This document shows, piece after piece, positions 7,894 through 42,027 of a stretch of 64,000 nt of DNA. The DNA is from a virus. The notes under the pieces were generated by a model. That model had not been told where the DNA came from, searched no databases, and worked only from the letters and a program-made list of their open reading frames with translations. The stretch lies in the IMG/VR virus record IMGVR_UViG_3300025120_014381, positions 9,421 through 73,420 of that record; one strand, written 5' to 3'. The number at the start of each line of letters is the position of its first letter. Within the stretch, counting starts at the first letter, position 1. The position numbers and the translations under genes are program-made.

Positions 7894-8643
7894 TTATTGT
7901 GCTAATTCTATTTCGTAAATATTTTCATCATTTTCGCTAACTTCAGATATACCAAATCGCATGCGAAGAACTAGTTCCTCACGCTTAGTTAACGAAGTTA
8001 ACGCCTTAACAATCCTAGCTCTGATTAGTTGATTATCCAGAATCTGTTCAATGTTTAGACTGTCATTGTCGGGTATTATGTCACCAAGTGTCCTGTTACC
8101 TTCTTCACCAATTTGCTGGTCAATAGACGCAACGCTTTTTGTTTTTACTGCTTCTAGCGCATTACGAACATGTTTTTCTGTTAAGCCAAGCGCTTCACAA
8201 ATCTCGTCCATTGTAGGTTCATGGCCAAACTCGTCTTGGTACTCCTGCCTGAGTTGCCAAATTTTTCGAGCATTTGCTAAAGTATGGGAAGGAACTTTTA
8301 AGAGTGTGCTGTTTGAAGTCAAACTACGTGTGACAGCTTGTTTTATCCACCAACAAGCGTATGTTGAAAATTTAAAACCTTTGCGCCAATCAAATTTTTC
8401 AACAGCTTTGATTAATCCAATGTTGCTTTCTTGAATTAAATCTTCTAAGCTGCCACCATACTTGGCATATTTTTTGGCAATTGAAATAGCCAATCTAAGA
8501 TTGGATTCAATCATTATTCGTCTTGCTCTTAAGTCACCAGCTTCAATTCGTTTTGCTAATTCGACTTCTTGTTCTCTGGTCAAAAGCTTTGTGTGTCTTT
8601 TTATATCTCGAAAATACATCTCGAGAGAGGTTTTTGTTTCCAT
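7894..8643 (-). CDS. Phage sigma70-family (RpoD/RpoS-like) RNA polymerase sigma factor lacking the region 4.2 HTH
   Basis: LLTREQEVELAKRI, ESNLRLAISIAKKY, DLIQESNIGLIKAVEKFDWRKGFKFSTYACWWIKQAV, region 3 EPTMDEI, ends LTKREELVLRMRFGI plus 17 aa; start placed at ATG 8643 after GGAG. Confidence 0.9.
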   Translation of the reverse strand: METKTSLEMYFRDIKRHTKLLTREQEVELAKRIEAGDLRARRIMIESNLRLAISIAKKYAKYGGSLEDLIQESNIGLIKAVEKFDWRKGFKFSTYACWWIKQAVTRSLTSNSTLLKVPSHTLANARKIWQLRQEYQDEFGHEPTMDEICEALGLTEKHVRNALEAVKTKSVASIDQQIGEEGNRTLGDIIPDNDSLNIEQILDNQLIRARIVKALTSLTKREELVLRMRFGISEVSENDENIYEIELAQ

Positions 8644-8690
8644 ATTATTTATCTCCAATGTTTAATGTTTAATGTTTAGTTTGTATTGTT

Positions 8691-8743: not shown

Positions 8744-9151
8744 TTACTGTACAGTAATTGTTTTTGTTTCTGGTTTACGCTCTTGTAACAAAGGTACAGT
8801 GATCTGTAAAATACCTGCGTTATAAGCTGCATCGATACCATCAACGTTTACACCCTGAGGTAAATTCCAAGAGCGCTCAAAGGATGCATACTGAACAAAC
8901 TCTTGTTGTACGTACTTTGTACGTTGTGACTCATTTAAATGTCCTTGAACACTGAGTACATTGTTTTTAATGTCAATTTTAAAATCGTTCCTTGCAAATC
9001 CTGGAACATATAAATAAAAATTAAAACCACCATCATCAGCTTGAGAAATGTTGCACTGTGGGTATACGTTTTTCGCAGTACGCCTTGACTTGAGCCCTGA
9101 CATGTCATTAATAAATTTATCATCAAAAAAATCATTTATAAAATACTTCAA
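8744..9151 (-). CDS. Small heat-shock protein (Hsp20/alpha-crystallin)
   Basis: VPGFARNDFKIDIKNNVLSVQG, FERSWNLP, AAYNAGILQITVP. Confidence 0.9.
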   Translation of the reverse strand: MKYFINDFFDDKFINDMSGLKSRRTAKNVYPQCNISQADDGGFNFYLYVPGFARNDFKIDIKNNVLSVQGHLNESQRTKYVQQEFVQYASFERSWNLPQGVNVDGIDAAYNAGILQITVPLLQERKPETKTITVQ

Positions 9152-9625: not shown

Positions 9626-11224
9626 TTAATCATTTTGCTCAGTATTTACTTCAATCATTGAACAATCAGCCATTAATAACATTGTTGCAGCAGAAACAGC
9701 ATTCTCTATAGCACATCGTGATACTTTTGCAGGATCAAGTACACCCAATTCAAACATGTCACCAAATTTCTTATTACGTACGTCATAACCAAAACCAACC
9801 TCTGTTTCTTTCAGTTCGTTTAAGACTTTATGATGTGACAAACCAGCGTTATCTAGTATCTGTCTAAAGGGTGTTAAACACGCTTCTATTAACAAGCGAT
9901 ATCCGGAAATAAAGCTTTTATCATGTTTAGATATATCATGATCACCTAGCTCTTGTGCTAATCTATACAAGGCAATCCCCCCACCCGGAAGTACTCCTTC
10001 TTCAAGTGCTGCACGTGTGGCATGCAGTGCGTCATCTACCCGATCGTAACGTTCAATTAATTCTGATTCTGTTGCAGCACCGACCCTAAGTATTGCGATA
10101 CCGCCTGATAATTGTTGTATTCGATATCGAAGCAATTCGCGTTCATTCTCACCTAACCCTGGATAGTTTAATTTTTCTCTAATAACATCCATTCGCGCTT
10201 GTGTCTCATCAGAACGTGATTCATCTTTTATTACTAATGTTTTACTCTTATGGATAATCATCTTTTTACATGTACCAAACATTTCCGGGTCAAAAGAAGT
10301 CATGTCAAATGCGCTATCTAACACCTTACCACCTACAATTGATTCTAGATCAAGTAACAAGTCGTGTCTTGCGCCACCAAAACCAGGTGATTTTATAGCT
10401 GCAACTCTGAGTGAACCTTTAACACGATTCAAAACTAATCCTTGCAGTGCGTCCCCGTCAACTTCATTAGCGACAACAATAATTGGTCTTCCCATTTCAA
10501 GCGCTACTTCTAAAGGTTTCATCAATTCACGAACTGAATTGAAGCTTCGGTCTGCCATGAGAATAAGGGGTTTTGAAAATTCAGCTGTCATTTTATTTTT
10601 GTCTGTTACGAAATACGGTGACAAAAAACCTCGCTCCATTTGGAAGCCGTCTACGACTTGCAAAGAGCTACTAAACCCTTTTGCTTCTTCAACAATGACA
10701 TGCCCATCTGGTCCGGCAGCTTCTATCGCTTTAACAATAAGCTTTGCTACTTCTTTCTCACCATTCGCTGATATTGTTGCCACTTTAAGTAAGTCACTAG
10801 TGTCACTCACTTCCTGTGAGGTATTTTTAATTGACTCAATTAAAATATTTCTTGCATAATCAATACCTTCTTTTATTTGCATCACATCAAAACCAGCTAT
10901 TTTATATTTTAACCCTTCATTATAGATGAACTGAGCTAATACTGTTGCTGTTGTCGTACCGTCACCAGCTTCATCAGCAGTCCGACTAGCTGATTCTTTT
11001 ATAATTTGTGCCCCTAAATTCTCAACTTCGTCTACTAGATTAACTGCTTGCGCAACTGTTACGCCGTCTTTTGTGACAATTGGATGTTGGCCGGGACGAT
11101 GTATTAAAACTAACTTGCCCTTTGGTCCCATAGTTACTTTAACTGCGTTAGCTAGCTTATTAATGCCTTTTTGAAGTTTTGAATCTAATTCTTGACCAGA
11201 ATATATTTCGCGCTTAATTTCCAT
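9626..11224 (-). CDS. groEL: Chaperonin GroEL (phage-encoded)
   Basis: AVKVTMGPKG, VTKDGVTVA, AGDGTTTATVLA, DDALHATRAALEEGVLPGGG, GVLDPAKV. Confidence 0.95.
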   Translation of the reverse strand: MEIKREIYSGQELDSKLQKGINKLANAVKVTMGPKGKLVLIHRPGQHPIVTKDGVTVAQAVNLVDEVENLGAQIIKESASRTADEAGDGTTTATVLAQFIYNEGLKYKIAGFDVMQIKEGIDYARNILIESIKNTSQEVSDTSDLLKVATISANGEKEVAKLIVKAIEAAGPDGHVIVEEAKGFSSSLQVVDGFQMERGFLSPYFVTDKNKMTAEFSKPLILMADRSFNSVRELMKPLEVALEMGRPIIVVANEVDGDALQGLVLNRVKGSLRVAAIKSPGFGGARHDLLLDLESIVGGKVLDSAFDMTSFDPEMFGTCKKMIIHKSKTLVIKDESRSDETQARMDVIREKLNYPGLGENERELLRYRIQQLSGGIAILRVGAATESELIERYDRVDDALHATRAALEEGVLPGGGIALYRLAQELGDHDISKHDKSFISGYRLLIEACLTPFRQILDNAGLSHHKVLNELKETEVGFGYDVRNKKFGDMFELGVLDPAKVSRCAIENAVSAATMLLMADCSMIEVNTEQND

Positions 11225-15661: not shown

Positions 15662-16084
15662 TTAAGCTCTGAATCGTATGACGTTTATGTCTTCAATTAT
15701 TTCATCTATTTTTTTGGACATGTCTAGATCACGATCAGTTACATCGTTTAAATCACGTGTGTATAAAGTAACAGTGACCTTTGTGTGATCGATCGTTATT
15801 TCTGGGTGATGATACATCTCTTCTGATAGATTTATTAATTCATTTATAAAATATGACAAAAATCTGACTGACTCGAAAGAGTATACTTTTTGCAAAGAAT
15901 TTTTTTCACTGGTGTTAATCTGGCACCACGAAAACGGCTCCGGGTCAATAGGTAAATCTTCTTCACCTTCTGGGTACCCTGTCCCTAAATGGCGCATCAT
16001 AGCTTTGCCGCTTTTTGTCATGTCAAACTCGTTGAGTGTTTGCTGCTGACGATTCTTCAATATGTTCTCTAACAACCTGCTCAT
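15662..16084 (-). CDS. Pterin-4-alpha-carbinolamine dehydratase-like protein with N-terminal extension
   Basis: SEEMYHHPEITIDHTKVTVTLYTRDLNDVTDRDLDMSKKID. Confidence 0.75.
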   Translation of the reverse strand: MSRLLENILKNRQQQTLNEFDMTKSGKAMMRHLGTGYPEGEEDLPIDPEPFSWCQINTSEKNSLQKVYSFESVRFLSYFINELINLSEEMYHHPEITIDHTKVTVTLYTRDLNDVTDRDLDMSKKIDEIIEDINVIRFRA

Positions 16085-21881: not shown

Positions 21882-22559
21882 TTAACTCCTCAGAATCTGG
21901 ATCATTTTGTCAGCTTTTACGACGCGTTCTTCGATCACAGGCCAACGTAATAATTTCATCATTGCTCTAGCGTAAGTGCTAACGTCTTTTAAGTAATCAC
22001 GATAATATGCATGCTGCCATGCATCCATTACGATGATAGGATACGATCCAAAAGGAATGTTGTTTGAATGTAGATCAACGACGGCGTTCATGTAAGTTTG
22101 TGTGAACGTGTTTAAATAAGTTATCGCCCAACCACATTGAGAGGCTGCTGCGCATGCTAAAAAATCTTTTTGCCAAGCGTCAAAACTCCCAAAGTCTCGT
22201 GCTAAGCGCATATAAGAAAGAGAGTCCATTTTAATTTCAGAATTTGGATCACCAACATTAGCGAAATATAATTCGTGTAAGTATACACCATTCATATTAA
22301 AAGTCTCATCTAATTTTAAAGATCTAAATTGTGAATGATTACAGTTCACATTTTGTTTATCAACAGTGTCAAGTTTGGCACTGACTTCATTAAAGTTTTT
22401 AAGATACCCTTGGTAGAGTTCAATGTGATTTTGGTAATTGTCATTACTTAAAAATTCTGAATTAAAACTAAACTTTTTTTCTTGTGCTGACAAAGCTTCA
22501 TCAATTCTTAGCGAGTCGCGTATAACTGATTTAATTTTTCCATTAAATAATTTTTCCAT
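21882..22559 (-). CDS. sod: Fe/Mn superoxide dismutase with N-terminal extension
   Basis: NHIELYQGY, LHELYFAN, DFGSFDAW, MDAWQHAYYRDY (four metal ligands present). Confidence 0.85.
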   Translation of the reverse strand: MEKLFNGKIKSVIRDSLRIDEALSAQEKKFSFNSEFLSNDNYQNHIELYQGYLKNFNEVSAKLDTVDKQNVNCNHSQFRSLKLDETFNMNGVYLHELYFANVGDPNSEIKMDSLSYMRLARDFGSFDAWQKDFLACAAASQCGWAITYLNTFTQTYMNAVVDLHSNNIPFGSYPIIVMDAWQHAYYRDYLKDVSTYARAMMKLLRWPVIEERVVKADKMIQILRS

Positions 22560-22841: not shown

Positions 22842-23276
22842 TTAATTATCAACTAATTTTATAACTGTGACATTACATTCGTTCAATATATCAACGCCAG
22901 ACATGTCTGGTTTATAATCATTAATGTACAACACCTGTTCTATTCCAGAGTTAACAATACATTTTGCACAGACAGGACAAGGAGCGTGAGTTAGATACAT
23001 CTTTTTTGGTTTAGGGTTGTTAAAGTCACATTTAATTAATGCATTAACCTCTGCGTGTATAAAACCACTTTTGCCTGTCTCCAGAGAATCCCTGCAGTTT
23101 GGTCCTCCTTTCTGGTCGCCATTATAACCTAACGCTAGTACTTGTGTATTGTCATTAGTAACAATGACTGCGCCTACTTGAAATTTCGGATCAGGAGAGC
23201 GTTTTGCAATATCTAAGGCAAATCTTTGCCAGATACTGTTCCACTCCGGTCTATCGTTTACTTTCATTTTTTTCAC
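22842..23276 (-). CDS. dCMP deaminase
   Basis: QVGAVIV, LGYNG, IHAEVNAL, HAPCPVCAK. Confidence 0.9.
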   Translation of the reverse strand: MKKMKVNDRPEWNSIWQRFALDIAKRSPDPKFQVGAVIVTNDNTQVLALGYNGDQKGGPNCRDSLETGKSGFIHAEVNALIKCDFNNPKPKKMYLTHAPCPVCAKCIVNSGIEQVLYINDYKPDMSGVDILNECNVTVIKLVDN

Positions 23277-23403
23277 AAATAATTCTTCTCATGATTGTCT
23301 TCGCGGTGGCATAATTGTAGCAAGGAATAACGTCGTCTTCAGAAATAACAACTTCATATTTACCATAAAACTTAATAGAATCTCTTATGTATGGATATAT
23401 CAT
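23251..23403 (-). CDS. Small hypothetical protein (50 aa, not in ORF track)
   Basis: MIYPYIRDSIKFYGKYEVVISEDDVIPCYNYATAKTIMRRIICEKNESKR fills the operon gap. Confidence 0.45.
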   Translation of the reverse strand: MIYPYIRDSIKFYGKYEVVISEDDVIPCYNYATAKTIMRRIICEKNESKR

Positions 23404-23406
23404 AGT

Positions 23407-24243
23407 TTAAACTTTGTCAAAAAGATCTTCGATATTGAAATCTCCAGGCAGTACAAACCCAGCTGCTTTTTTATGTCCACCACCACCATATTCTTTAGAA
23501 ACTTCAGAGACGTCAATCTTATCGTGGAAAGCACGAAGACTAACTTTTATAATTTTTTCGTTATGATCGTAGTACCAGATCATTGCAAAGTCACAGTCAG
23601 GTGCCAATCGTGCACCTATTTCAGACATCCAATGAGAAGAGTTAACAACTAAAACGTTTTTACTATTTATTTTCCTAGCAGCAGCTTTGTCACACACTTT
23701 CTTAACTACAGTTTTTGAATAAGCTAATATATAGCTGCCTCTTTTAACAGCATCATCAAACACAGAATCATCCTCAAACTTTTCAAATTCTTCAAAGTCG
23801 TGAGGCACCATGTCAAACGCCGCGCTGAATTCTTTTGAATAAGGTAGTTCCCAACGCCATAAGTCTCTATCTGTAATATACTGGATAAACTTTGGTGACT
23901 CTTTACCTGGGTGGAAAAATTCCCAAGACAATGTTGCACCAGACTTATTCATATCAAATATTGTATTTGATATATCATGCAATTCGACAACTGCTGACTT
24001 GTGATGATCAATAACTAAAAGTTCGTTTGCATCTTTAATCATTTGTTTTGTTGTCGCATTATTAAAAGAAAAGTCTAGTATAACAACATTCTTTCCTTTT
24101 ACGTCAGGGGGATTAGTTCCGTGCTTGCAAGCGTAGTACTCAGCACGATTACCTAATAGTTTCCAAGCTGAATAAGCTGATCCGAAACCATCAGTGCAAT
24201 CGGCATGATATATTACAACGTTAACACTCGAAGGTTCTAACAT
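23407..24243 (-). CDS. DHH/DHHA1 family phosphoesterase
   Basis: YHADCTDG, ILDFS, IDHHKS, DRDLW, SLR, YGGGGHKKAAGF. Confidence 0.9.
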   Translation of the reverse strand: MLEPSSVNVVIYHADCTDGFGSAYSAWKLLGNRAEYYACKHGTNPPDVKGKNVVILDFSFNNATTKQMIKDANELLVIDHHKSAVVELHDISNTIFDMNKSGATLSWEFFHPGKESPKFIQYITDRDLWRWELPYSKEFSAAFDMVPHDFEEFEKFEDDSVFDDAVKRGSYILAYSKTVVKKVCDKAAARKINSKNVLVVNSSHWMSEIGARLAPDCDFAMIWYYDHNEKIIKVSLRAFHDKIDVSEVSKEYGGGGHKKAAGFVLPGDFNIEDLFDKV

Positions 24244-24256
24244 ACGTCTCTCCTAA

Positions 24257-24838
24257 TTACTCACGCATATAATTATGATGTTCTTGACATCTTGGTTCGT
24301 AAAGTTCTGCACCACCTACTTGAATTTGTTCTACTGATGGATCAGATTCAAAAGGTTCTACTTGTTTTACATTTGATTTTATGTATGTGTATCTTGCATC
24401 TTTTTGGCAAACGCTGCATACAGACTTACACTTTATTATTCTTGTACAAAAAGGCATTAGGTCTTTGACTTCTTTAAAAGGCTCTCCGGCAAAAGACAGG
24501 TCTATTGAAGATACTACCACGTCATATCCTTTCTTGTATAAGGTTAAACATGCGGCGGCGCCACCCTCAATTAAAAATAATTCGTCTATCAAAACGCAAT
24601 CAACCTCTTTTTGCTCTGCAATCTTTTTAATTATCTCTTCACCAGTAGAAACTAAATGCGCTGGAATTTTATTGAAGTTATGTGTAACTATCTCGCCAAC
24701 TTGCGAGTATCTATCATCAAGGCTAGACTTGAATGCGATAACCTTCTGCTTTTGATAGTATCTTTTGTCAGCTTGCATCAACAACTTTGTTGTTTTTGAA
24801 CTAAACATAGGGCCGGTGTATAGTATTAAATCAGCCAT
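24257..24838 (-). CDS. tdk: Thymidine kinase
   Basis: TGPMFSSKTT, DDRYS, IDE, CSVC, VGGAELYEPRC. Confidence 0.9.
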   Translation of the reverse strand: MADLILYTGPMFSSKTTKLLMQADKRYYQKQKVIAFKSSLDDRYSQVGEIVTHNFNKIPAHLVSTGEEIIKKIAEQKEVDCVLIDELFLIEGGAAACLTLYKKGYDVVVSSIDLSFAGEPFKEVKDLMPFCTRIIKCKSVCSVCQKDARYTYIKSNVKQVEPFESDPSVEQIQVGGAELYEPRCQEHHNYMRE

Positions 24839-25841
24839 CTCTCAGTCCCCACCACTGGATTGTGAGCTCTAAACCTTCCCAAAATTTTACTAGAGGTTCA
24901 TAGCCAAAATCATTCTTAGCTTTAGAGACGTCTGCTTGTGTGTGCATGACGTCGCCTGGGCGCCAATCAGCATGTCTAATCGTGCTATTGAATTCTGAGA
25001 CGAAATAATCCAACACCTCTTTATTGGAGACCTTGTTGTTACACGCGATATTATAACAGTCTCCAGCAAAAGGACCTTTAGCATTTGCTGATAAAATGTT
25101 TGCTGAAACTACATTATCAATATAACACATATCGCGTGTCTGGCTTCCGTCTCCATCAGAACGACACTCAAGATTGTTTTTAGTTGCGTGACACCAAGCA
25201 GAAACGGCTGTTGAATATGGGCTGTCTCCGTACTGACCTGGCCCAAAAACATTAAAATATCTCAAGCAAACAATATCAAGCTTGTACAAGTGCCAGCACA
25301 TCTTTGCAAATTCTTCTATCGATGACTTTTGCCATGCATAAGGTGACTTAGGATCTTTAGAAGCAGTTTCTTTTGTCGGTAGTTCAATGGCACCTCCATA
25401 AACAGAAGAGGAGGAGGCCCAAACAATCCTATCAACAGCACCACTGGCTGCCTCAAATAGTTTTACTGTTTTTGCTATGTTAACTTCTGTAGTATACCAA
25501 GGTTGTTCAACTGAGTAACTGACTCTTGGTACTGCTGCCTGGTGAAAAATAACATCGTAACATCCTTGATATACAGCATTCAACACATTATCGTCCGCAA
25601 AATCATCTTGTATCACTAACACTTCATCACTTTTTCTTTTTTGATCTTCAGGGATTTGCATCATGTAAATTGTATAAAATGAGCCGTTTGGTAAAACTCT
25701 AATATTTACCCCTTCCAACAATTCTAAATGGCCGTTTGACATGTCATCAACAATGTCAACTTGCCAACCTTGTTTTACCAGCTCTTTTGTGAGGTTGCTT
25801 CCAATAAAACCACAACCTCCTGTCACTAGTGCTTTTTTCAT
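24831..25841 (-). CDS. NAD-dependent NDP-sugar epimerase/dehydratase
   Basis: VTGGCGFIGS, HQAA, ASSSSVYG, SPYAWQK, LRYFNVFGP, RPGDV. Confidence 0.9.
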   Translation of the reverse strand: MKKALVTGGCGFIGSNLTKELVKQGWQVDIVDDMSNGHLELLEGVNIRVLPNGSFYTIYMMQIPEDQKRKSDEVLVIQDDFADDNVLNAVYQGCYDVIFHQAAVPRVSYSVEQPWYTTEVNIAKTVKLFEAASGAVDRIVWASSSSVYGGAIELPTKETASKDPKSPYAWQKSSIEEFAKMCWHLYKLDIVCLRYFNVFGPGQYGDSPYSTAVSAWCHATKNNLECRSDGDGSQTRDMCYIDNVVSANILSANAKGPFAGDCYNIACNNKVSNKEVLDYFVSEFNSTIRHADWRPGDVMHTQADVSKAKNDFGYEPLVKFWEGLELTIQWWGLRDG

Positions 25842-26436: not shown

Positions 26437-26935
26437 TTTTTCTTTCCTTCCATATGTCATTTTTATTTTTTCTTTCAAAAAAGCTAACATTGACTTTTTT
26501 CTCTTCATCATTAAGCGTGTAAGATGCAATTAATCCAGCATGACTAATTACACTTAAGTTAGTTATAACAAACTTTCCACAGCTAATTTCTATTATCTCG
26601 CCTATATTGATCGGATAACCAAAGGCAGTTGTGAAAAATGTATTTTTGTTTATTTCAATTAGTGTGCTTGTTTTCTCTTCGTATCTAAATAGTCTTCTTT
26701 TATCATAGTGGCGTTTTCTTAGTGTCTTCCACCTAAACGAACTACTAATTGATGATTCCATTTTAGGAAATGCTTGTTTAAAGATATGTTTTCTCCTTTG
26801 GCAACCGTGACTAGGAGGTCCCCAAATGACATAGTCAGGAAAACAAATTTCATCTTTAAGAAAAATGCATTCAAAAATATTTTTATCTTTTATCATATAA
26901 CATGTCCTGAGCCTACCGTGAATTCCATTTTGCAA
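26429..26935 (-). CDS. Hypothetical protein
   Basis: Operonic ORF, true start probably about 26896. Confidence 0.45.
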   Translation of the reverse strand: MQNGIHGRLRTCYMIKDKNIFECIFLKDEICFPDYVIWGPPSHGCQRRKHIFKQAFPKMESSISSSFRWKTLRKRHYDKRRLFRYEEKTSTLIEINKNTFFTTAFGYPINIGEIIEISCGKFVITNLSVISHAGLIASYTLNDEEKKVNVSFFERKNKNDIWKERKNE

Positions 26936-27813
26936 TAATTACCTTCACGGTCACATTTAAAATACCTAAATACTTCTGCTGTTAAATACTTCAGGAAGTT
27001 TAGATCGTAATGCACTGTATCTTTTGCATTAGAAGACCGTAGGTAAAAACGTGCATCCATGTGATCGTCGCGGATTAAAAAGTGACATGTGGCAATGCAA
27101 CTACTGTCTGTGTATATGAAGCGACGTGAGTTTATTGTTTCTTTGCGTTCGTAAGGATTTTTTCCTGCTAGCTCGTCTTTGATTGTTTTAAATACTGAGG
27201 CCTCGATTCTTTCGTAATAATCTTTCTCTTTTTCATAAACTAACATTTCTTCGTTAATGTCAGAAAAATCACCTGTGTCATAGTGCACAAAGTTAAAACC
27301 CACTACCTCTTGTAATTGGTTTGCAGATGATGTACCTAGTGTTTGCAACATAGCGTCCCGCAGATGATGCGCAGAGTTTCTTTCGAATGATCGATACTGG
27401 TTAACCAGGCTTTTAACGAGAGGTTCATCCACAACACTTCTTATTATAGTTACGTTGGCGTGGTACTGGAATTCTTCTACAGCTTCAGAGAAAAGATTAT
27501 GTAGTTTACGCAGACTAGCAAGATTTTGAATTGGGTCGCCACGCTTTGAAAATCTATCAACAATAACCTCCCAGTCAGGCAAGCAAATAATTAGCTGGTT
27601 GTTAAGATTAAACAGTTCACGTTTTAATTGTTCAACGTGGTTGAAAGTATTTCGGCCATAGTATTTTGCATGGATCAGCATAGACAAAGCTGATCGATCT
27701 TGGATGTTCCATTGATAATTTGATTGTTCGTGTATCATCTCGTATAAAGTTGTTTTTCCGGAACAATCAGGACCTTCAATAAAAATGTAATTAATTGGTG
27801 TTGAGTAACTCAT
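26893..27813 (-). CDS. dNMP kinase fused to a thymidylate-synthase-fold domain with dCMP-type signature
   Basis: N-terminal IEGPDCSGKTT/DRS; C-terminal SRR...SCIATCHFLIRD...YLRSSNAKDTVHYD...VGSGHVI. Confidence 0.65.
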   Translation of the reverse strand: MSYSTPINYIFIEGPDCSGKTTLYEMIHEQSNYQWNIQDRSALSMLIHAKYYGRNTFNHVEQLKRELFNLNNQLIICLPDWEVIVDRFSKRGDPIQNLASLRKLHNLFSEAVEEFQYHANVTIIRSVVDEPLVKSLVNQYRSFERNSAHHLRDAMLQTLGTSSANQLQEVVGFNFVHYDTGDFSDINEEMLVYEKEKDYYERIEASVFKTIKDELAGKNPYERKETINSRRFIYTDSSCIATCHFLIRDDHMDARFYLRSSNAKDTVHYDLNFLKYLTAEVFRYFKCDREGNYCKMEFTVGSGHVI

Positions 27814-28042
27814 CTTCTATTTCCTCTATTTTTGCAATAAATAAGTTTTCGTGTTCTTTGATTTTTCCGTTATAAAAGACAGAATAAAAATTGTTTCTAA
27901 GTTTAAGTGGATTTCTTTTTACGACAATACCGTAAGCGTGATCAAATCCGGCTTTGTCATGGAAGGGAACTACACAAAGCTCGCCTATCTCAAATTTTTT
28001 ATCTTCAGGTGTTGTAAATATATTCATGTCAATCTGTGACAA
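27791..28042 (-). CDS. Hypothetical small protein
   Basis: FEIGELCVV...YGIVV pattern. Confidence 0.5.
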   Translation of the reverse strand: MSQIDMNIFTTPEDKKFEIGELCVVPFHDKAGFDHAYGIVVKRNPLKLRNNFYSVFYNGKIKEHENLFIAKIEEIEDELLNTN

Positions 28043-31000
28043 GAGGTCTTACTTTTGCTACACTTGTTGATGCACCCCAGTTTGGATCATTAGAAGCTTG
28101 CACTAACCAGATTGAATATGGCACCATGGATGACGGTTTATTACCCCACATTCTTAACCAACCTGTGTTATTTTCATAATCAGTAATCTTGAGTCGATAA
28201 AACGTCTTCTTATTCTTAGTTGTCTTTTTAATCATTTCAACGATACAACACCAAGCAATACCTTTTTCGCCCGGCTCCATATTTAATACAGACTTAACGT
28301 TAGCACTTTTAATCTTTTCCATCATATCATCAGGGAATGCTAAATCATCACGAGTTGCTGAACACAAGTCCTGATACATTGTCAGTTTGTCAATTCGACC
28401 CCAGTCCTCAATGTCTTTAGTTTGTTCGATCAAGATAGGCAACATTTCAGGAGCATTTTCTTTCTTTGCCTTGCGCATTGTCATACCCCACTTGCTTTTC
28501 TTTAATGCGTTGTAATTCTCAATGATAATATTATAAAGCTGATTGTGATTATCAATAGTGCCGTCCCACATCTCTTGTAGTCCGTTAAATGCTTCGACTT
28601 TGCATAGTGAAGCAAATCCTGTTTTATTGAGTTTAGAATGGCGCCATTTACCTGTTTCATCAAATAATATATCAGCAACTGATTCATATGGTCTATTTTG
28701 CATGATTTCAACAACAGCAGTTTTACCTACACCCTTAATGGAAGTTAAAGGAGGAATAAATGCTTTTTTATTGTCTGACCATTGCCAATACGTACCTGAT
28801 TCATTTACATCCGGTAATTCAATACGATAACCCATTTCTTTAATTTCAGCAATTGCTTTTGATAATGCATTTGGGTTATTGTTTTCAGATTCAAGAATCG
28901 TCCCCAACCAATCAGTTTCATAGTATGTGTGAAGCCAAGCAGCGTAATAAGAGCCAATGGCGTAAGCAACAGCATGTGATTTATTAAAGCCATACACAGA
29001 GAAGAATTCAATACGTTCCCACAGCTCTTGTGAGATATGCTCAGGTACTCCATTGATTTCTTTTGCACCGTTGACAAATCTTGAGCGCGCTTCTTCACGC
29101 TCACCACCTTTATTACCCATGGTATCAAGCGACTTCTTAACTAATGTTTTGCGGAGTTTATCTGACTCAGCAGGTGTAAAGCCACCAAGTTTCTGTGCAA
29201 GAAGCATAAATTGTTCTTGGAAAGTTACGTGACCAAATGTGGGGCCGAGTATTTCTTTAATAATAGGATGTGCATAATGTATTTCATCAGAGCGAAGCTT
29301 GTCTTTAACATACTTCTTATGAACATTGGCGCGTAGAGGACCAGGTCGATATATCGCGGTCAATGCTGCGAGTTCGATAATTGTTGTTGGTTTAGCATCC
29401 TCACAGAATCGACGCGCGCCTTCAGCAGTGAATTGGAATACACCGGTCTTGCGACGTTGATGATAAACATGTTTCCAAACTGTATCATCATCTTGCTCGA
29501 CATAGCGACAATTAAGGTGCTTGTCAAACCAATCACGTATTTCGAGAAAGGTAGGTTCAGTGCCCGTTTCACGAGTGATAATGCGCTTGATACAGTTTTC
29601 TACGTCTTTAAGGAGTGTTAGCCCAAGAAAGTCAAACTTAATAAAACCGTTATCCTCAAGATTACGAAAGTTCATCCCTTCAGTCCAAGGGGTTTGCAGT
29701 TCACCACGTACACCAATAATGGGCATTGATTGTTCTAGTGCTTCAGGAGGGCCAATAATAACACCACCCGCATGGCGACCAATAGATCTATTTTGCATAA
29801 AGAGTGCTTCGATATGATCCTTCACTTTTGGATACTTTTCCATAAACTCGCGATAACCTTTTGAATAATTCATACAGTCTTCATGTTTGAGAACAAATAC
29901 AGACTTCTCGGTATTTTCATCACGAGCCTGGGACATTACATCGTCTTGCAGTGGACCAGTCATTTTGTTTACTTCAGCAAAATCAACTTCATAGAACTTA
30001 GCAATATCCTTTACTAGTGACTTTAACTTAAGTGTGTTAAAGTTGGATACTGGGATTACAGCCTGATCACCGTATAGTTCACGTGCTGCATCAATCAAGG
30101 CATCACGATTACCAGCATCAGAATCAATGTCCGGCCAAGACGTACGATGGCGCCCAAGAAATCGTTCCCATAGCAAGTCGTATTTAAGTGGGTCGACTTG
30201 GGTGATACCTAACAAGTAGTTTACAAGTGAACCGCCACCAGAACCGCGTGCAGGACCAAACAGTGTATGATCTGCTGCTTTGTGAAACACTTCATACATT
30301 ACTAGGAAGTAGTTTTCGAACCCGAGGTATTTAATGTCATCGAGTTCGTGCTTCGCCCGGGCAACGTATTCGGTATTGGTATGAAGTCCTTCTTTAATGA
30401 GCGCTGCTTTGACCTTTTTTGCAAGTTGTTGAAAAGCAGTTTCGTTAGGCTTATTGAAATCGGGAAGCTTAACGCTAGTATCAATCCAACAATCTTCACA
30501 CTTTTCCCACGCAATGTCATGGGTGATTTCAATTGATCGTTTAATCTTTTCTTCATAGCCCTGGTAAGTATCTTTGTACTCGTCATAATGACGCGTAAAT
30601 TCATTCCACATCTGACTAGCGTTTTTCGGGTATAATTCACACTTTAAGTCTTCAAACTCTGGTAGTGGAGAGGGATCGTTACCCATCCAACCTAGTTTTT
30701 TGTAAAGCTCGCGAGCTTCCCACTTATCCGGTGAATAGTAATGAGAATCAGGTGTAGCAATTAACTGCAATCCTGTTGCATCTGAATGCCGAAGTAGATG
30801 GTGATTTACTAAATGTTGTTGCTTAAGACGATTAAACTGTATTTCTAGATAGAAATTATCTTCACCAACTGCATCAACAAATCGATCAGATAAATACATT
30901 AACTCCTGCTGGATTTTTTCATCACCTAGTTTTAGTGCATTACCACGCATAATTCTATTTGAAAAGATACCGCCTAGACAAGCAGTTGAAACAGTTAAAC

Positions 31001-31547
31001 CCTTTCCGTACTTTTTAAGTAGATCAAAGTCAATGCGCGGATATCTATAAAAGCCGTCTGTGTAGGCACGTTTAATTAGAGTAAATAAGTTACCTAAACC
31101 TTCACGGTTCTGTGCTGTTACTACCAGATGATAACGTCGTTTCCATTCGTCCTTACCCAAGTCAAACGATTTTGTTTCTTCTTCGTTTTCGATAATATGA
31201 CCGCCTTCTTCATCTTCTTTCAGGGCTTTAAGTTTTGCATTGGCACGATCGATCTTTGACTGTTCATAGTCTGATTTCCAGTCTTTAAGCGATGGGACAA
31301 AGTAAAACTCGCAACCGTATATTTGACGGAATTTCTTGCCTTGCTTTTTAACTTTTTGCGCATGTTTATAAGCGTGTGCTAGACCAGAACCGTTACCGTG
31401 ATCAGTTAATGCCCAAGCATCCATACCATTTTCTAGTACAAAGTCAATATGGTCGGATGGGTACCCTAGGCCGTCGAAAACAGAGAAACCTGTGTGTCCG
31501 TGAAAACCAACAAATCGATCGGGTGGGGTAATTAGCTTGATGTCCAT
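28029..31547 (-). CDS. dnaE: DNA polymerase III alpha subunit (family C)
   Basis: PHP motifs HGHTGFSVFDG, ALTDHG; GPARGSGGGSLVNY, PDIDSD, KFDFLGL, YGFNKSHAVAY; start placed at MDIKL after GGAG. Confidence 0.95.
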   Translation of the reverse strand: MDIKLITPPDRFVGFHGHTGFSVFDGLGYPSDHIDFVLENGMDAWALTDHGNGSGLAHAYKHAQKVKKQGKKFRQIYGCEFYFVPSLKDWKSDYEQSKIDRANAKLKALKEDEEGGHIIENEEETKSFDLGKDEWKRRYHLVVTAQNREGLGNLFTLIKRAYTDGFYRYPRIDFDLLKKYGKGLTVSTACLGGIFSNRIMRGNALKLGDEKIQQELMYLSDRFVDAVGEDNFYLEIQFNRLKQQHLVNHHLLRHSDATGLQLIATPDSHYYSPDKWEARELYKKLGWMGNDPSPLPEFEDLKCELYPKNASQMWNEFTRHYDEYKDTYQGYEEKIKRSIEITHDIAWEKCEDCWIDTSVKLPDFNKPNETAFQQLAKKVKAALIKEGLHTNTEYVARAKHELDDIKYLGFENYFLVMYEVFHKAADHTLFGPARGSGGGSLVNYLLGITQVDPLKYDLLWERFLGRHRTSWPDIDSDAGNRDALIDAARELYGDQAVIPVSNFNTLKLKSLVKDIAKFYEVDFAEVNKMTGPLQDDVMSQARDENTEKSVFVLKHEDCMNYSKGYREFMEKYPKVKDHIEALFMQNRSIGRHAGGVIIGPPEALEQSMPIIGVRGELQTPWTEGMNFRNLEDNGFIKFDFLGLTLLKDVENCIKRIITRETGTEPTFLEIRDWFDKHLNCRYVEQDDDTVWKHVYHQRRKTGVFQFTAEGARRFCEDAKPTTIIELAALTAIYRPGPLRANVHKKYVKDKLRSDEIHYAHPIIKEILGPTFGHVTFQEQFMLLAQKLGGFTPAESDKLRKTLVKKSLDTMGNKGGEREEARSRFVNGAKEINGVPEHISQELWERIEFFSVYGFNKSHAVAYAIGSYYAAWLHTYYETDWLGTILESENNNPNALSKAIAEIKEMGYRIELPDVNESGTYWQWSDNKKAFIPPLTSIKGVGKTAVVEIMQNRPYESVADILFDETGKWRHSKLNKTGFASLCKVEAFNGLQEMWDGTIDNHNQLYNIIIENYNALKKSKWGMTMRKAKKENAPEMLPILIEQTKDIEDWGRIDKLTMYQDLCSATRDDLAFPDDMMEKIKSANVKSVLNMEPGEKGIAWCCIVEMIKKTTKNKKTFYRLKITDYENNTGWLRMWGNKPSSMVPYSIWLVQASNDPNWGASTSVAKVRPLVTD

Positions 31548-31577
31548 GTAGAAAAACTCCTTGTTGTATTTTGTTTT

Positions 31578-31606
31578 ATTATACACTAAGGAGTTTAAGA
31601 TTACAC
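31578..31606 (-). promoter_or_regulatory. Promoter GTGTAA-N17-TATAAT upstream of dnaE
   Basis: -35 31601-31606, -10 31578-31583. Confidence 0.65.
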
Positions 31607-31616
31607 TTTTCAATAT

Positions 31617-32207: not shown

Positions 32208-33197
32208 TTAAAAATATTCAGTTAAGTCAATATTTCTCGCTTCTGCTTCTTCTAGATATCTTAATGGGTTGTAACCTTCAGACTTTAAAATACTTTCGAA
32301 AGACATTTTTATTCCTTGCGATAAACTTATTTTTGGTTCCCACCCAGTTATCCTCCTAGCTTTTTGTGATGACAAGATATGATTACCCATATATTCTGTT
32401 TGTGGCAGCCATTCGATTGTATCTGCGAAACTCTGGCCACACACTTCATCCATTAGCTGAATGATTTCACCGGTGACTAATGGCGTTTCAGCTGCGATAT
32501 TATAATCGTCATTCCAATATTCTTTTTTGCTCATACAAGTAAAGACACCATCACAATAATCATTGACGTGTAAGTAGTCTTTAATCTTTGTTGGGTCAAG
32601 GAACATTTTGACTTTAGGAATTCCATTAAGCTTGGCGTATATCGTTTTAGCAATCAAAGAGTTCATGTCACCCTCACCACCATATGCAAAGAGTGGTCTT
32701 ACGATCATCCATGCGTCACTGTGTGACTTAACGATTTCTTCTGCAGATAATTTCTGACAGCCGTAAAAAGTGCTCGGTCCTCGATCTGAATCCTCAACGA
32801 TAGCTGTTTCTTGATATTTGGGAGTATCATAAATAACTGTAGTACCCATATAACAGACAGGAATTCCGCACTTCTTTGCAGCACGACAGATATTAAAAGT
32901 ACCCTGGACGTTAGTAAGTGTTGATTCTTTTGCATTTAGCGCGACGACATCAGTACCTACAACTGCTGCGTTATGGATGACATAGTCAATATCGTTGACT
33001 TTAAAGAATGCTATCCACGCTTCTTCTGAATTACGATGAACACAAGGCTCACCTTTTTCCGTCGTAAACTGTGCCACAAATGCGGCATCTTCGTTTAAAT
33101 CGTGCACGCCCGATACAAAATGAAAACCGTGTTTTTTTGCGCGATTGGCTAAATTAGTACCTATAAAACCTTTTTCTCCAGTTATAAAAACATTCAT
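32208..33197 (-). CDS. Divergent NAD-dependent NDP-sugar epimerase/dehydratase
   Basis: FITGEKGFIG, HNAAVVG, FYGCQK, VRPLFAYG, KDYLHVND. Confidence 0.85.
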   Translation of the reverse strand: MNVFITGEKGFIGTNLANRAKKHGFHFVSGVHDLNEDAAFVAQFTTEKGEPCVHRNSEEAWIAFFKVNDIDYVIHNAAVVGTDVVALNAKESTLTNVQGTFNICRAAKKCGIPVCYMGTTVIYDTPKYQETAIVEDSDRGPSTFYGCQKLSAEEIVKSHSDAWMIVRPLFAYGGEGDMNSLIAKTIYAKLNGIPKVKMFLDPTKIKDYLHVNDYCDGVFTCMSKKEYWNDDYNIAAETPLVTGEIIQLMDEVCGQSFADTIEWLPQTEYMGNHILSSQKARRITGWEPKISLSQGIKMSFESILKSEGYNPLRYLEEAEARNIDLTEYF

Positions 33198-36627: not shown

Positions 36628-37614
36628 TTATTTTCTCCCCATAAATTGATTATATTGATATTTTAATTGTGCAATATCTTCGTATGTTTCGTCCCAAAGT
36701 TGTTCAAATATTGTTGGTGCGTCTGGTGGGTGTGTACCATTAATATCCTCACGTCGAGACTGGTAAATTGTATCGTTAGGATGATACTCAAACTTATCAT
36801 TCTTAGGTTCTGGCCAGTACAGATTTGTACCTCGTGATGTTTCGCCACCTTTACCATCAGGCACACGGAATGTTTTAATATAATGCATATCTGGCTTGTT
36901 AAAGTCAATTCTTGCAGATGCTTCTGGCAACACCTTTAAAACTTCTCGCGCCATATAAGCTGCAAGAAGATTATCAGCTGCAGGTTGAATTTGCATATCT
37001 TGGCGTTGCGCGATGAAACCTAGTAAATCTTTAAGATTAAGACGCATTAGATAGAATGATGTCATTGCTTTTGGAAGAATCATTCTAGCATCCATCATAG
37101 ACACTACTTTTGAATCTGTCATATCTGAATAAAGCTGTTTTGACTCTCGTACGATCTTTTTATATCTCGCCAAAAATTCAGGTGAATTCTGGACGGCTTC
37201 TGGAATTACTGCCGGATCATCTCGTAAGTCACGATCGCCTGTGCATTGTGCAGCAAAAGAACCTGCTCGGTGCCTAATGATATGCGTCACTTCTTGAAAT
37301 GATAAACCGGAAAGCTTAAAGGTAAAGCCTAAACATTCCATTGGTGTTGGAAGCGCACGAAAACAGAGGACGTCCTCAAGATTTGCAGATAACTCTTTCA
37401 GTGATGCTGTTGCTGGGTTTGTTTCGTCATGATGATCTGCCCATGTTGCCTTCACATATTGCCAAGCGACGTTCAAGGCTTGTGAACGTGTTGGTGCGTC
37501 GATCAATTCAACTTTTAAATGAGCTAAGTTGTTAAAGAATTCTGTTCTTGGTTCTTGACCGAACTTTAATTCCATTGGTAAATCGACAGGTTTTAAATCT
37601 AAATTTTGTGGCAT
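36628..37614 (-). CDS. thyX: Divergent flavin-dependent thymidylate synthase (ThyX family)
   Basis: PMECLGFTF, HIIRHRAGSFAAQC, DARMILP, NLKDL...QR. Confidence 0.75.
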   Translation of the reverse strand: MPQNLDLKPVDLPMELKFGQEPRTEFFNNLAHLKVELIDAPTRSQALNVAWQYVKATWADHHDETNPATASLKELSANLEDVLCFRALPTPMECLGFTFKLSGLSFQEVTHIIRHRAGSFAAQCTGDRDLRDDPAVIPEAVQNSPEFLARYKKIVRESKQLYSDMTDSKVVSMMDARMILPKAMTSFYLMRLNLKDLLGFIAQRQDMQIQPAADNLLAAYMAREVLKVLPEASARIDFNKPDMHYIKTFRVPDGKGGETSRGTNLYWPEPKNDKFEYHPNDTIYQSRREDINGTHPPDAPTIFEQLWDETYEDIAQLKYQYNQFMGRK

Positions 37615-40799: not shown

Positions 40800-41606
40800 C
40801 TATTTTTGAACAGCCGGCACCCAGTGTGTAGTTCGTTTATCAAGCGTTTGTTCTTTGATAATTTCATTACCACAAGGTGAGGTTTTTTGATTATACACAG
40901 CGAAACGCTGACTGTACAAACCTTTTTTGCCGTTAGGCTTTCTATAGTTTTGTATTGTTGCACCTCCTGTACTATACGACAGTTGTATTATTCGTCTACA
41001 TGCATAGAATAGTTTGTTAGACTCATCAGTTGTGATATGTGCACACAATCGGTGTGGTGATATCTTTGCGTCATAAAGACATTCTGCTTTAAGGTAGTTT
41101 CCGATACCGCTTACATTTTTTTGATTCATTAAAAATTCTGCAATTGTTTTGTTAGGCTTCTTTTTTAAAAGAATATAAAATGTATCAGGACCCCACGCAT
41201 CTTTAAGAAAGTCTGGCCCTATTGACTTGAGCTTTTTAGCTAAGTCTTTTTTATTAAGTGCTATTTTAAAAGTACCAAAATTTCTCATATCATTATAATA
41301 CAAGGATAGTGATTCGTCTTCAAACTCTAGTTTGAGCCTAGAGTGGTTTGTTGTATTGTTCGACCACATTCCTGTCATTCCCAGTGTATTAAAGAAGTAT
41401 ACGTCGTCTTTGAATGAAAAGTATATAAACTTCCCCTTACATTCGACATGTTCCAGCAACAAGGGGAATCGCCAACTTGGGTTATTGACGTTATCAATTG
41501 GTTTCTTAGTATATCTTCCAGATAACACTGTCAGTCTTTTAAGTACTTTTCCTTCATATGATTTTAAAAAGTCTACTGTTGTTTTTACTTCGGGTCCTTC
41601 AGGCAT
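40800..41606 (-). CDS. Fpg/Nei family DNA glycosylase/AP lyase with zincless finger
   Basis: MPEGPEV start, KGKFIY, LGMTG, DMRNFG, LMNQKNVSGIGNYLKAE, RTTHWVP. Confidence 0.92.
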   Translation of the reverse strand: MPEGPEVKTTVDFLKSYEGKVLKRLTVLSGRYTKKPIDNVNNPSWRFPLLLEHVECKGKFIYFSFKDDVYFFNTLGMTGMWSNNTTNHSRLKLEFEDESLSLYYNDMRNFGTFKIALNKKDLAKKLKSIGPDFLKDAWGPDTFYILLKKKPNKTIAEFLMNQKNVSGIGNYLKAECLYDAKISPHRLCAHITTDESNKLFYACRRIIQLSYSTGGATIQNYRKPNGKKGLYSQRFAVYNQKTSPCGNEIIKEQTLDKRTTHWVPAVQK

Positions 41607-42027
41607 GTGTTTCCTCCAGCCAAGATTTATAATTTTTAAGTGCACTATCTGTTGGAATGACTTCTCGCCATTCTCCCTTAACAAAGATTCGATACGCGTC
41701 TGACCCATATTTTCCAATACCATACAATTTAGTTGGGTCATCTTTCCAGTCTTTTTCGAGGTAATCAATTGACATCTGTTTTAAAGCGCGGGTACGTCTG
41801 TCTACCAAACCCAAAGGTTGTATTAAAGACTTTAAAGCATGCTCATCTAACTTTGATGCATCTTCAGGTGTAGGCCAATTTTTTAAAAAATCCCAGAAAT
41901 ATGGTTCAGATGAGCGCCGCTTTGTTAAATTACAAAATATGCAGCAAACAAAGATCCTCCACGGATCTTTGTTTAATTCTTCTTGTAAAAGTGCATAAGG
42001 TGACATGTGTATCTTCTTTTTTATCAT
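41599..42027 (-). CDS. MBD4-like HhH-GPD mismatch DNA glycosylase
   Basis: LLQEEL..DPWRIFVCCIFCNLT, WPTPE, LYGIGKYGSDAYRIF, PTD.AL..Y..W. Confidence 0.85.
   Translation of the reverse strand: MIKKKIHMSPYALLQEELNKDPWRIFVCCIFCNLTKRRSSEPYFWDFLKNWPTPEDASKLDEHALKSLIQPLGLVDRRTRALKQMSIDYLEKDWKDDPTKLYGIGKYGSDAYRIFVKGEWREVIPTDSALKNYKSWLEETHA

Follow-up and report, generated by a model that had tools for sequence, protein, structure and literature searches.

A 64-kb stretch of DNA from a giant, uncultured marine phage, which we call the window (64,000 nucleotides (nt), positions 9,421 to 73,420 of the linear, 73,420-base IMG/VR virus record IMGVR_UViG_3300025120_014381), encodes a 306-residue protein in which a short P-loop kinase is fused to a reduced thymidylate synthase (TS) fold, here called the mini-TS. 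We propose, at a probability of about 0.5, that this fusion is a bifunctional enzyme that modifies C5 of a dCMP-type nucleotide without the use of folate and then phosphorylates the product. The fold, the homology, the conservation of residues, the linkage of genes and a predicted dimer are the observations on which the proposal is built, and from them we infer the substrate, the chemistry, the direction of the kinase reaction and the incorporation of the product into DNA. The open reading frame (ORF) occupies 26893..27813 on the minus strand (306 codons plus stop), with its ATG at 27811-27813 and a GAGG-like site upstream; the minus strand holds nearly all genes of the window, the G+C content of which is 33–40%, and all window coordinates given below refer to that strand. 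CheckV rates the record as 27% complete, which we take to mean a full genome of about 270 kb.

The C-terminal domain (residues 145-306, about 160 residues; 26896..27381) was examined with Foldseek, VIA-align, hmmsearch and hhalign. An earlier note, made from the sequence alone, had claimed a minimal TS fold in this protein, and both the structural comparison and the profile searches find that fold; the note would have been refuted by a predicted structure lacking it, which is not what the models show. With the model of the whole protein, Foldseek placed the dCMP hydroxylase AfhB of phage HY126 first, followed by a riboflavin-dependent dCMP monooxygenase, the dCMP hydroxymethylase (dCH) of phage T4, TS and MilA, and the matches to TS-family structures, with this model and with one of the domain alone, had a probability of 1.00 and E-values of 1.4e-6 to 1.5e-6. 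A model of the domain alone (pLDDT 88.3) gave 315 Foldseek matches at an E-value of 0.001 or below, including AfhB (PDB 9iqu; E-value 1.5e-6, TMq 0.54) and T4 dCH (1b5d; 2.3e-6, TMq 0.55); because TMq is 0.54–0.55 for both, structure does not rank one of these two enzymes above the other. VIA-align over residues 145-306 aligned 140–148 residues of TS-family members at Z-scores of 10.2–11.6 (MilA 11.6, 143 residues; AfhB 11.3, 147 residues; TS 10.9, 140 residues), the top BFVD matches of the domain are phage TS and gp42-type proteins, and in the ESM Atlas TS/dCH clusters account for 21 of the 30 feature matches.

Homology can also be recognized in the primary sequence, provided that the alignment is diverse enough. 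An alignment of 47 diverse C-terminal domains from viral loci (A2), from which one degenerate-looking sequence (L067) was left out, retrieved T4 dCH (3.5e-4) and AfhB (0.03) from the PDB by hmmsearch, with nothing else below 0.1, and in hhalign it matched gp48 of phage RB69 (NC_004928) with a probability of 91.7% and an E-value of 7.9e-7 over 77 columns. The same hhalign comparison with a shallow alignment (A1) reached a probability of only 4%, and a search of the PDB with the single sequence of the fusion protein returned chance rows only, at E-values of 0.18 or above. Among these are matches of the stretch around RSSNAKDTVHYDLNFLKYL (26896-27150, residues 228-304) to framework-3 of camelid nanobodies, at E-values of 0.18–2. 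We regard the likeness of the RSSNAKDTVHYDLNFLKYL stretch to nanobody framework-3 as a coincidence of sequence, not as homology.

All of the TS landmark strings quoted by the earlier note are present in the translation of the ORF, and their conservation was followed through 181 sequences (P0001, the 67 proteins of related IMG/VR loci and the 113 of P0002-P0121 that have at least 280 residues). The Cys that the note had set at the catalytic position is Cys239 (27097..27099, within DSSC, 27097-27108), as in its own alignment; it aligns with the Cys of T4 dCH, AfhB and gp48 and is kept in 178 of the 181 sequences, and the adjacent Cys243, just before His244, is not conserved, being Ala in most relatives. 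S229-R230-R231 (27121..27129) aligns with the SRR of gp48 (R230 in 180 and R231 in 178 sequences), R259-S260-S261-N262 (27028..27039) includes the phosphate-binding counterparts R259 (179) and S260 (178), and S302-G-H304 (26902..26910) corresponds to SLH of T4 dCH and SAH of gp48 (S in 177, H in 176 sequences). R248 is likewise conserved, in 179 relatives. Glu196 (27226..27228), which lies within an E-x-x-Y-Y motif and is kept in 180 sequences, probably corresponds to the active-site Glu of TS, an assignment that is ours and not that of an alignment tool.

The note had further placed an Asp at the position of N177 and an Asn at that of D169 of E. coli ThyA, and both placements stand. Asp270 (27004..27006, within YD, 27004-27009), the cytosine-type residue at the N177 position, aligns with the Asp of both T4 dCH and gp48 and is kept in 179 of the 181 sequences, the other two having gaps; N262, at the D169 position, aligns with the Asn of the RSQN motif of gp48 and AfhB and with the second Asp of the RSND motif of T4 dCH. 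Cys239 is separated from Asn262 by 23 residues and from Asp270 by 31, which equals the spacing of C146, D169 and N177 in ThyA (E. coli numbering as given in PMC13326640). Counting back three residues from Cys239 would put Asp236 (D in 129 of the 181 sequences) at the position of ThyA L143, where the 5-hydroxy-dCMP synthases carry an acidic residue, an equivalence that a 12-column gap in the hhalign alignment makes uncertain.

The domain opens with a helix (148-161), a strand (169-179) and a long helix (194-215), after which SRR follows 13 residues on; these are followed by three strands and one helix before the last strand, and the protein ends two residues past H304. Nothing in the domain remains to be aligned with the folate-side elements of ThyA, that is, the segment of W80 and Y94 and the C-terminal tail, W80 and Y94 being listed in PMC13326640 among the ThyA residues within 6 A of C5. 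The W80/Y94 segment is missing, and so are the C-terminal tail and the long loop that precedes the Cys. Because these elements are missing, the C5 chemistry is not expected to be ordinary folate one-carbon transfer, and the note's caution that it may not be standard folate transfer is a fair reading of a protein from which the folate-binding parts are gone. The retention of the residues that grip the nucleotide and activate C5, together with the loss of the part that holds folate, leads us to read the domain as an enzyme that modifies a dCMP-type nucleotide independently of folate.

The N-terminal domain (residues 1-144; 27382..27813) is a P-loop kinase of the YorR/deoxynucleoside kinase (dNK)/thymidylate kinase (TMK) type by structure and profile matches, in agreement with the kinase that had been predicted there. 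In the AlphaFold model of the whole protein (pLDDT 85.7, pTM 0.83), VIA-align superposed residues 8-148 on YorR with a Z-score of 13.8 and a root-mean-square deviation of 2.8 over 138 aligned residues, followed by the deoxyadenosine kinase of M. mycoides (Z 12.4), the TMK of S. aureus (about 12) and the deoxycytidine and deoxyguanosine kinases (10.3). The family profile matches YorR of B. subtilis SPbeta at 1.1e-5, with the Walker A, DR and R-x-x-x-R-G-D stretches aligned. Within a set of 48 relatives, drawn from 68 by dropping proteins of fewer than 290 or more than 325 residues and near-duplicates, invariant positions are found in and next to the Walker A motif GPDCSGKT (residues 14-21, 27751..27774; E13, G14, P15, D16, G19 and K20), in the D39-R40-S41 motif that aligns with DRF of YorR (27691..27699; D39 and R40) and in the LID-like RFSKRGD (residues 87-93, 27535..27555; R87, G92 and D93). 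Pfam AAA_28 matches at 28.6–29.2 bits, over its cut-off of 27, and the scores for Thymidylate_kin (PF02223; 20.5 bits for the whole protein and 23.9 for the domain alone, against a 27-bit cut-off) and for Pfam dNK lie under their cut-offs; in PHROGs the fusion protein matches families named 'thymidylate kinase'.

In TS the active site is shared between subunits, and a pair of Arg residues reaches into the site of the partner. A homodimer of the fusion was predicted with an ipSAE of 0.88 in all three runs, the best control reaching 0.00; at least 96% of the contacts recur between runs, and the partner pLDDT is at least 89. Of 30 proteins solved as pairs, 20 reach the ipSAE mark; of 23 solved as single chains, one does. 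The predicted interface is formed mainly by the TS-like sheet (233-260 and 295-304), with R230 and R231, the counterparts of that Arg pair, touching R259 and S302 of the partner, and kinase residues 32-65 also make contacts across it (to 176 and 178, and from kinase to kinase). Since TS dimers are solved structures, this result may reflect only a likeness to them, and a TS-like dimer, as predicted by the models, belongs to the function that we propose.

The gene linkage centers on the replicative polymerase. A DnaE-type polymerase of 1194 residues (28029..31613) is encoded upstream of the fusion, and between the two lies an ORF of 83 residues (27791..28042) that overlaps both neighbours, the fusion by 23 nt; this small ORF has no Pfam family and forms a singleton cluster, being present in the window alone among the window and 67 related loci. 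The earlier note had put the fusion two ORFs downstream of dnaE in the same operon: it is indeed the second ORF, on the same strand and with overlapping neighbours, and the operon itself is a matter of shared strand and ORF overlaps, promoter and terminator scans of 22.5-33.5 kb having stayed at shuffle level (39 versus 36.5 and 6 versus 6.2, respectively). In all 67 loci an ORF of the DnaE family precedes the fusion on its strand, with a gap of at most 82 nt in 26 of them. Because the loci form one viral lineage, this is conserved synteny and not an independent association of the two genes.

Relatives of the fusion protein are numerous in environmental data. A homologue search returned 497 clusters, nearly all of 300–310 residues and mostly marine (ENA, Tara, JGI); a scan of 1.84 billion protein representatives with the A2 profile gave 430, 170 and 77 matches at E-value thresholds of 0.001, 1e-10 and 1e-30, respectively; and in IMG/VR, relatives that cover the protein fully or nearly so, with identities as low as 28%, occur at 67 loci, on contigs of up to 284 kb. 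The whole protein had no tblastn match in 50,697 phage records and thus no cultured relative there, and the matches of the window DnaE to phage records are all below 30% identity. In cellular genome contigs one match is nearly full length (residues 10-280, 37% identity) and lies on a 26-kb contig of an archaeal metagenome-assembled genome (MAG) (L100, PBHZ01000014.1), which is probably a mis-binned viral contig; the other 10 cover part of the kinase domain only, and nine of these come from archaeal MAGs, mostly DPANN. In one viral relative (L067:9989-10879) the Cys is lost, R-S is replaced by K-Q and the last His by Tyr; to judge from these changes it is probably an inactivated copy.

On the proposed mechanism, R259 and S260, together with R230' and R231' of the partner subunit, would hold the 5'-phosphate, Asp270 would read the cytosine face, and Cys239 would add to C6 and thereby activate C5; the TS-family His sits near the 3'-OH. 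The YorR-like kinase would then convert the modified deoxynucleoside monophosphate (dNMP) to the diphosphate, and host kinases and the adjoining DnaE polymerase would put the modified nucleotide into phage DNA. For the C5 step itself we rank hydroxylation with flavin and O2 first and exchange of a 5-substituent second. A study published in 2026 treats Asn at the D169 position combined with Asp at the N177 position as diagnostic of the flavin-dependent 5-hydroxy-dCMP (5hodCMP) synthases: N177D gives a preference for dCMP, D169N marked every such synthase tested, and 5-hydroxydeoxycytidine gave a UV-visible peak in the DNA of E. coli only with a cognate dNMP kinase (PMC13326640). Hydroxylation is ranked first because of the combination of N262 and D270, the position of AfhB as top structural match and this published need for a kinase; the leading candidate for the product of the window protein is therefore 5-hydroxy-dCMP, made with O2 and reduced flavin, an assignment that we make tentatively and do not rate higher because residue 262 switches between N, D and E in the family and a pocket wall is missing, as detailed below.

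The scan with the A2 profile also returned proteins of 165–200 residues that consist of the mini-TS alone, and the 17 that were compared all have the Cys, RS-S-D, an Asp equivalent to residue 270 and GS(L/A)H. One subgroup of these stand-alone proteins led to five IMG/VR loci (L116-L120) of another viral lineage; apart from a ClpP gene, which the window also has, and the mini-TS, nothing in them matches the window. At the one locus of the five that was scanned against Pfam (L116:4708-12304), a single strand encodes, in order, a 189-residue kinase that matches the profile hidden Markov model (HMM) of the fusion's N-terminal domain at 8e-11 over nearly its whole length; a 223-residue T4-like dCH (PF00303 8e-22; T4 dCH 2.5e-71 over the full length), with RSND and N-D-Y; a 181-residue mini-TS, which overlaps the dCH gene by 8 nt; a HAD/PNKP-phosphatase-like protein; a 511-residue protein combining a nucleotidyl (NTP) transferase with an APH-type kinase; two proteins of 466 and 408 residues with no PDB relative; and a C5-cytosine-methylase-like protein. 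Homologues of these genes were found by BLAST in most of the other four loci. The kinase homologue is two genes upstream of the mini-TS in three of the five loci (8e-11, 1e-8 and 1.5e-6); of the two kinase-less loci, one is cut at the contig end and one is without the kinase. PMC13326640 describes an NTP-transferase/kinase architecture for AfhE and DLP3 gp82, and assigns AfhF/AfhE and DLP3 gp81/gp82, as phosphatase and bifunctional pyrophosphorylase/kinase, to sugar activation in the arabinosyl-5-hydroxycytosine pathway. In RB69, a 'nucleotide kinase', gp45, is encoded three annotated ORFs from gp48 and matches the N-domain HMM at 2e-6, mainly at the P-loop. The split cluster connects each half of the window protein with cytosine hypermodification, and the position of a mini-TS beside a complete dCH indicates that the mini-TS is not simply a substitute for dCH.

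The wider neighbourhood of the fusion was counted in the window and the 67 related loci (n = 68), taking the gene with 10 kb on either side. DnaE is present in 68, the fusion in 67, thymidine kinase in 55, dCMP deaminase in 54, the epimerase family in 49, a superoxide dismutase (SOD)-like gene in 43 and DHH in 37. In the window the conserved module downstream of the fusion (22842..25841) comprises dCMP deaminase (22842-23276), a DHH/DHHA1 phosphoesterase (23407-24243), thymidine kinase (24257-24838) and an NAD-dependent sugar epimerase/dehydratase (24831-25841), and a phosphoribosyltransferase gene is also downstream of the fusion. The Fe/Mn SOD-like gene (21882-22559), five genes from the fusion, is compatible with oxygen or flavin chemistry in the vicinity and is not evidence for it. 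A second NAD-dependent sugar epimerase/dehydratase paralogue lies at 32208-33197, and this set of sugar genes also includes a phosphomannomutase and a cytidylyltransferase, with a further location at 4904-6147; in other phages, according to PMC8256090, such epimerases adjoin DNA glycosyltransferases.

Five related records (G000 and the larger G001-G004, of 202–284 kb, with the 284-kb G004 rated 100% complete) were searched for enzymes of pyrimidine and pterin metabolism. A ThyA-type gene (PF00303) was found in none of G000-G004 (G000 was searched at E-values up to 1; the control matched 10 of 14 genomes), and none of the five records has a TMK above the Pfam cut-off. G001-G004 each encode two members of the ThyX family, of which one is canonical (224–254 residues, E-values of 1e-47 to 1e-52) and far from the fusion; the other is a divergent paralogue of 322–351 residues (about 1e-19 to 1e-21) that keeps RHR and has a C-terminal extension of about 100 residues. 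The divergent paralogue lies 7–15 kb from the fusion in all five related records (L128, L129, L130, G003:C1:139266-139850), and its 328-residue copy in the window is at 36628..37614. With ThyX present and no ThyA-type gene, the mini-TS is not needed for the synthesis of dTMP, and the divergent ThyX may be another pyrimidine-modifying enzyme of the same pathway as the fusion. A pterin-4a-carbinolamine dehydratase (15662-16084) also occurs in all five related records (L096-L099), about 9–13 kb from the fusion, and within 10 kb of it in 18 of the 68 loci; this pterin-recycling enzyme could point to pterin-dependent oxygen chemistry.

The window further encodes an Fpg/Nei-type DNA glycosylase (40800-41768), also found at L033:45-740. 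5-Hydroxycytosine is a substrate of glycosylases of this type, and an enzyme that acted on it would be awkward for a phage with unglycosylated 5-hydroxycytosine DNA, or useful against host DNA. Other genes of the window are those for a nucleoside 2-deoxyribosyltransferase, an NT5C-like nucleotidase, ribonucleotide reductase, DnaB, RecA, a gp32-like protein and two FEN-type nucleases, as well as a PAS-domain protein (2-622), a sigma-70 factor (7894-8658), Hsp20 (8744-9151) and a GroEL-type chaperonin (9626-11224); related loci carry DnaJ and GMP reductase.

Several of the observations weigh against the function that we propose. Pfam Thymidylat_synt (PF00303) does not detect the mini-TS at E-values up to 10, the domain has no match in Pfam or PHROGs at all, and by sequence the family is closer to T4 dCH than to AfhB. 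With 162 residues the mini-TS is about 76 shorter than RB69 gp48 (238 residues), lacking about 52 residues before SRR, 16 between SRR and the Cys and 12 at the C-terminus, so that the usual wall of the pocket is gone whichever cofactor is used. At residue 262, 143 of the 181 sequences have N, 26 have D and 11 have E, and one has a gap; the residue changes at least eight times on the tree of the 48 non-redundant sequences, two or three of these changes being required by branches whose SH-aLRT is at least 95, and it varies inside tight clades (N in L014 and E in L009 and L013; N in L069 and D in L042). Adjoining gene content does not differ between the N, D and E states, and since the residue switches within tight clades of the same neighbourhood, Asn262 is a weak predictor here. 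The substrate of the kinase, nucleoside or monophosphate, cannot be read from its fold or motifs. In the gene complement, no glycosyltransferase was found in the window (64 ORFs against Pfam and the 10 family-less ORFs against PHROGs, about 30 ORFs having no assignment), GT1/GT2 genes occur in only two of the five related records (G002 and G004), far from the fusion locus, a MazG-type dCTPase occurs in none of the five, and the nearest thing to a dUTPase is a weak dUTPase_2-like ORF of the window, for which no PDB relative was found. Finally, in the stand-alone proteins the D169 position is Asp in all 17 compared, and dCH lies directly upstream of the mini-TS in all five split loci, so that the mini-TS may act after a first C5 step instead of performing it.

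This last arrangement is at the root of one alternative, according to which the mini-TS is a tailoring enzyme that takes 5-hydroxymethyl-dCMP, or another 5-substituted dCMP, from a separate C5 enzyme: the T4-like dCH in the split lineage and possibly the divergent ThyX in that of the window. Cys239 would add at C6, the 5-substituent would leave to give an exocyclic-methylene intermediate of the kind that TS and dCH form, and a new nucleophile would be added, with the kinase either phosphorylating the product or making the leaving group. Such a reaction would explain why the folate parts are gone from a domain that retains Cys, Glu196, the phosphate site and the Asp, and why the folate-contacting D169 position varies freely among N, D and E, and it gives a place to the stand-alone mini-TS directly downstream of, and overlapping, a T4-type dCH in five of five loci and to the ThyX paralogue 7–15 kb from the fusion in five of five records. 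Each of these co-occurrences, however, comes from one related lineage and amounts to about one event, the ThyX paralogue is not adjacent to the fusion, G000-G004 contain no PF00303 enzyme to supply 5-hydroxymethyl-dCMP, and we know of no TS-fold enzyme with 5-substituent exchange activity. We consider the tailoring role, including its individual steps, somewhat unlikely, and give a similarly guarded rating to its consequence, a new class of TS-fold reaction in which a different 5-substituent is installed on the mononucleotide and the kinase commits the product to synthesis by DnaE. Alternatively, the protein might be a reduced folate-dependent dCMP hydroxymethylase or methyltransferase fused to a dNMP kinase, uniting the logic of T4 gp42 and gp1 in one chain. 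T4 dCH is in fact the closest PDB relative by sequence (3.5e-4, and 2e-7 with the profile of the stand-alone proteins), and 26 of the 181 relatives have Asp at the D169 position, but the absence of the W80/Y94 segments and of the C-terminal tail, the Asn at 262 of the window protein and the full dCH that already accompanies the mini-TS in the split lineage make this improbable.

Other alternatives concern the division of labour between the domains. The TS-like part could be a non-catalytic module that binds dCMP or dimerizes and that regulates or scaffolds a dNMP kinase, perhaps the thymidylate kinase of the phage; no TMK reaches the Pfam cut-off in G000-G004 even though dTMP is made there via thymidine kinase and ThyX, it is mainly the TS-like sheet that holds the predicted dimer together, and L067 does without the Cys, the RS motif and the His. 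Conservation of Cys239, Glu196, His304 and Asp270 in 176–180 of the 181 sequences is hard to explain for a binding module, and stand-alone mini-TS proteins exist without a kinase domain, so we see only a small chance for it. Slightly better placed, and still unlikely, is a kinase that acts first, as a deoxycytidine kinase feeding salvaged deoxycytidine as dCMP to the TS-like domain: deoxynucleoside kinases are among the top structural neighbours (deoxyadenosine kinase, Z 12.4; deoxycytidine and deoxyguanosine kinases, Z 10.3), and the phage has the salvage genes for thymidine kinase, nucleoside 2-deoxyribosyltransferase, phosphoribosyltransferase and the NT5C-like nucleotidase. Yet TMKs score equally, at Z of about 12, dCMP is presumably abundant during infection, and the pathway described in PMC13326640 requires a dNMP kinase once the synthase has acted. 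That the kinase acts on a modified base in DNA, in the manner of the 5-hydroxymethyl-deoxyuridine (5-hmdU) DNA kinase 5-HMUDK, was suggested by the cooperation of TS homologues and P-loop kinases in thymidine hypermodification (PMC11472151 and PMC8256090). This candidate was rejected as highly improbable, as there is no match to PF18748 at E-values up to 10 for the whole protein or 0.1 for the domain, where the control, gp54 of Pseudomonas phage M6, matches at 7.7e-18, and hhalign aligns the kinase domain with the 5-hmdU DNA kinase over the P-loop only, 21 columns.

Measured against known systems, the fusion protein resembles the flavin-dependent 5-hydroxy-dCMP synthases AfhB (E. coli phage HY126; PDB 9iqu, 9iqc), RB69 gp48 and DLP3 gp80, with which it shares the TS fold, the alignable Cys, SRR, RSxN, N177-position Asp and S-x-H, the Asn at the D169 position, a short C-terminus and, going by PMC13326640, a kinase partner. 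It differs in that the mini-TS is about 76 residues shorter and fused to its kinase, and that the Asn is not fixed in the family. T4 gp42 dCH (1b49, 1b5d, 6a9a), the best PDB relative by sequence, has in common with it the series Cys...IRD...RS...D...S-x-H and the cytosine-type Asp; it has Asp at the D169 position and binds tetrahydrofolate, according to the title of 6a9a, whereas the window protein has Asn and is without the cofactor-side segments. T4 also uses a separate kinase, gp1. The kinase half shares with YorR (2axp, 3kb2), dNK and TMK the fold, the P-loop, the DR(S/F) motif and the R-x-x-x-R-G-D lid, and at about 145 residues it is the shortest of these kinases and the one joined to a TS fold. 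The 5-hmdU DNA kinase of M6 (gp54) is likewise a P-loop kinase partnered with a TS homologue in base hypermodification, with no family match to the present one. The split form of L116-L120 has both halves as separate genes on the same strand, with a full-size dCH between kinase and mini-TS and an Asp at the D169 position of the mini-TS; the 223-residue TS homologue of L116 is detected by Pfam, and the mini-TS of the window protein is not.

What is already known, then, is the TS superfamily with its cytosine-specific branch, as well as the signature of the hydroxylases and their need for a kinase. What appears to be new is a TS fold cut down to about 160 residues and joined to a YorR-like kinase, its spread through uncultured marine phages that encode it with DnaE, and its stand-alone paralogue beside dCH. 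We found no description of a kinase–TS fusion or of these other features in the literature, most subscription journals lying outside the search, and the nine IMG/VR homologues tested in PMC13326640 may include a member of this family.

Hypermodification of phage DNA defeats restriction and CRISPR, and what is known of its enzymology derives, with few exceptions, from phages of enteric and soil bacteria that have been cultured. If the new class of TS-fold reaction considered above were real, a widespread lineage of marine phages with genomes of 200–280 kb would carry a hypermodified cytosine of unknown kind. More generally, if the mini-TS is active, cytosine modification would be commonplace in an ocean phage group that is abundant and uncultured, and the domain would be the smallest working catalyst with a TS fold. 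It would then also help to explain how the superfamily switched away from folate, a question left open in PMC13326640.

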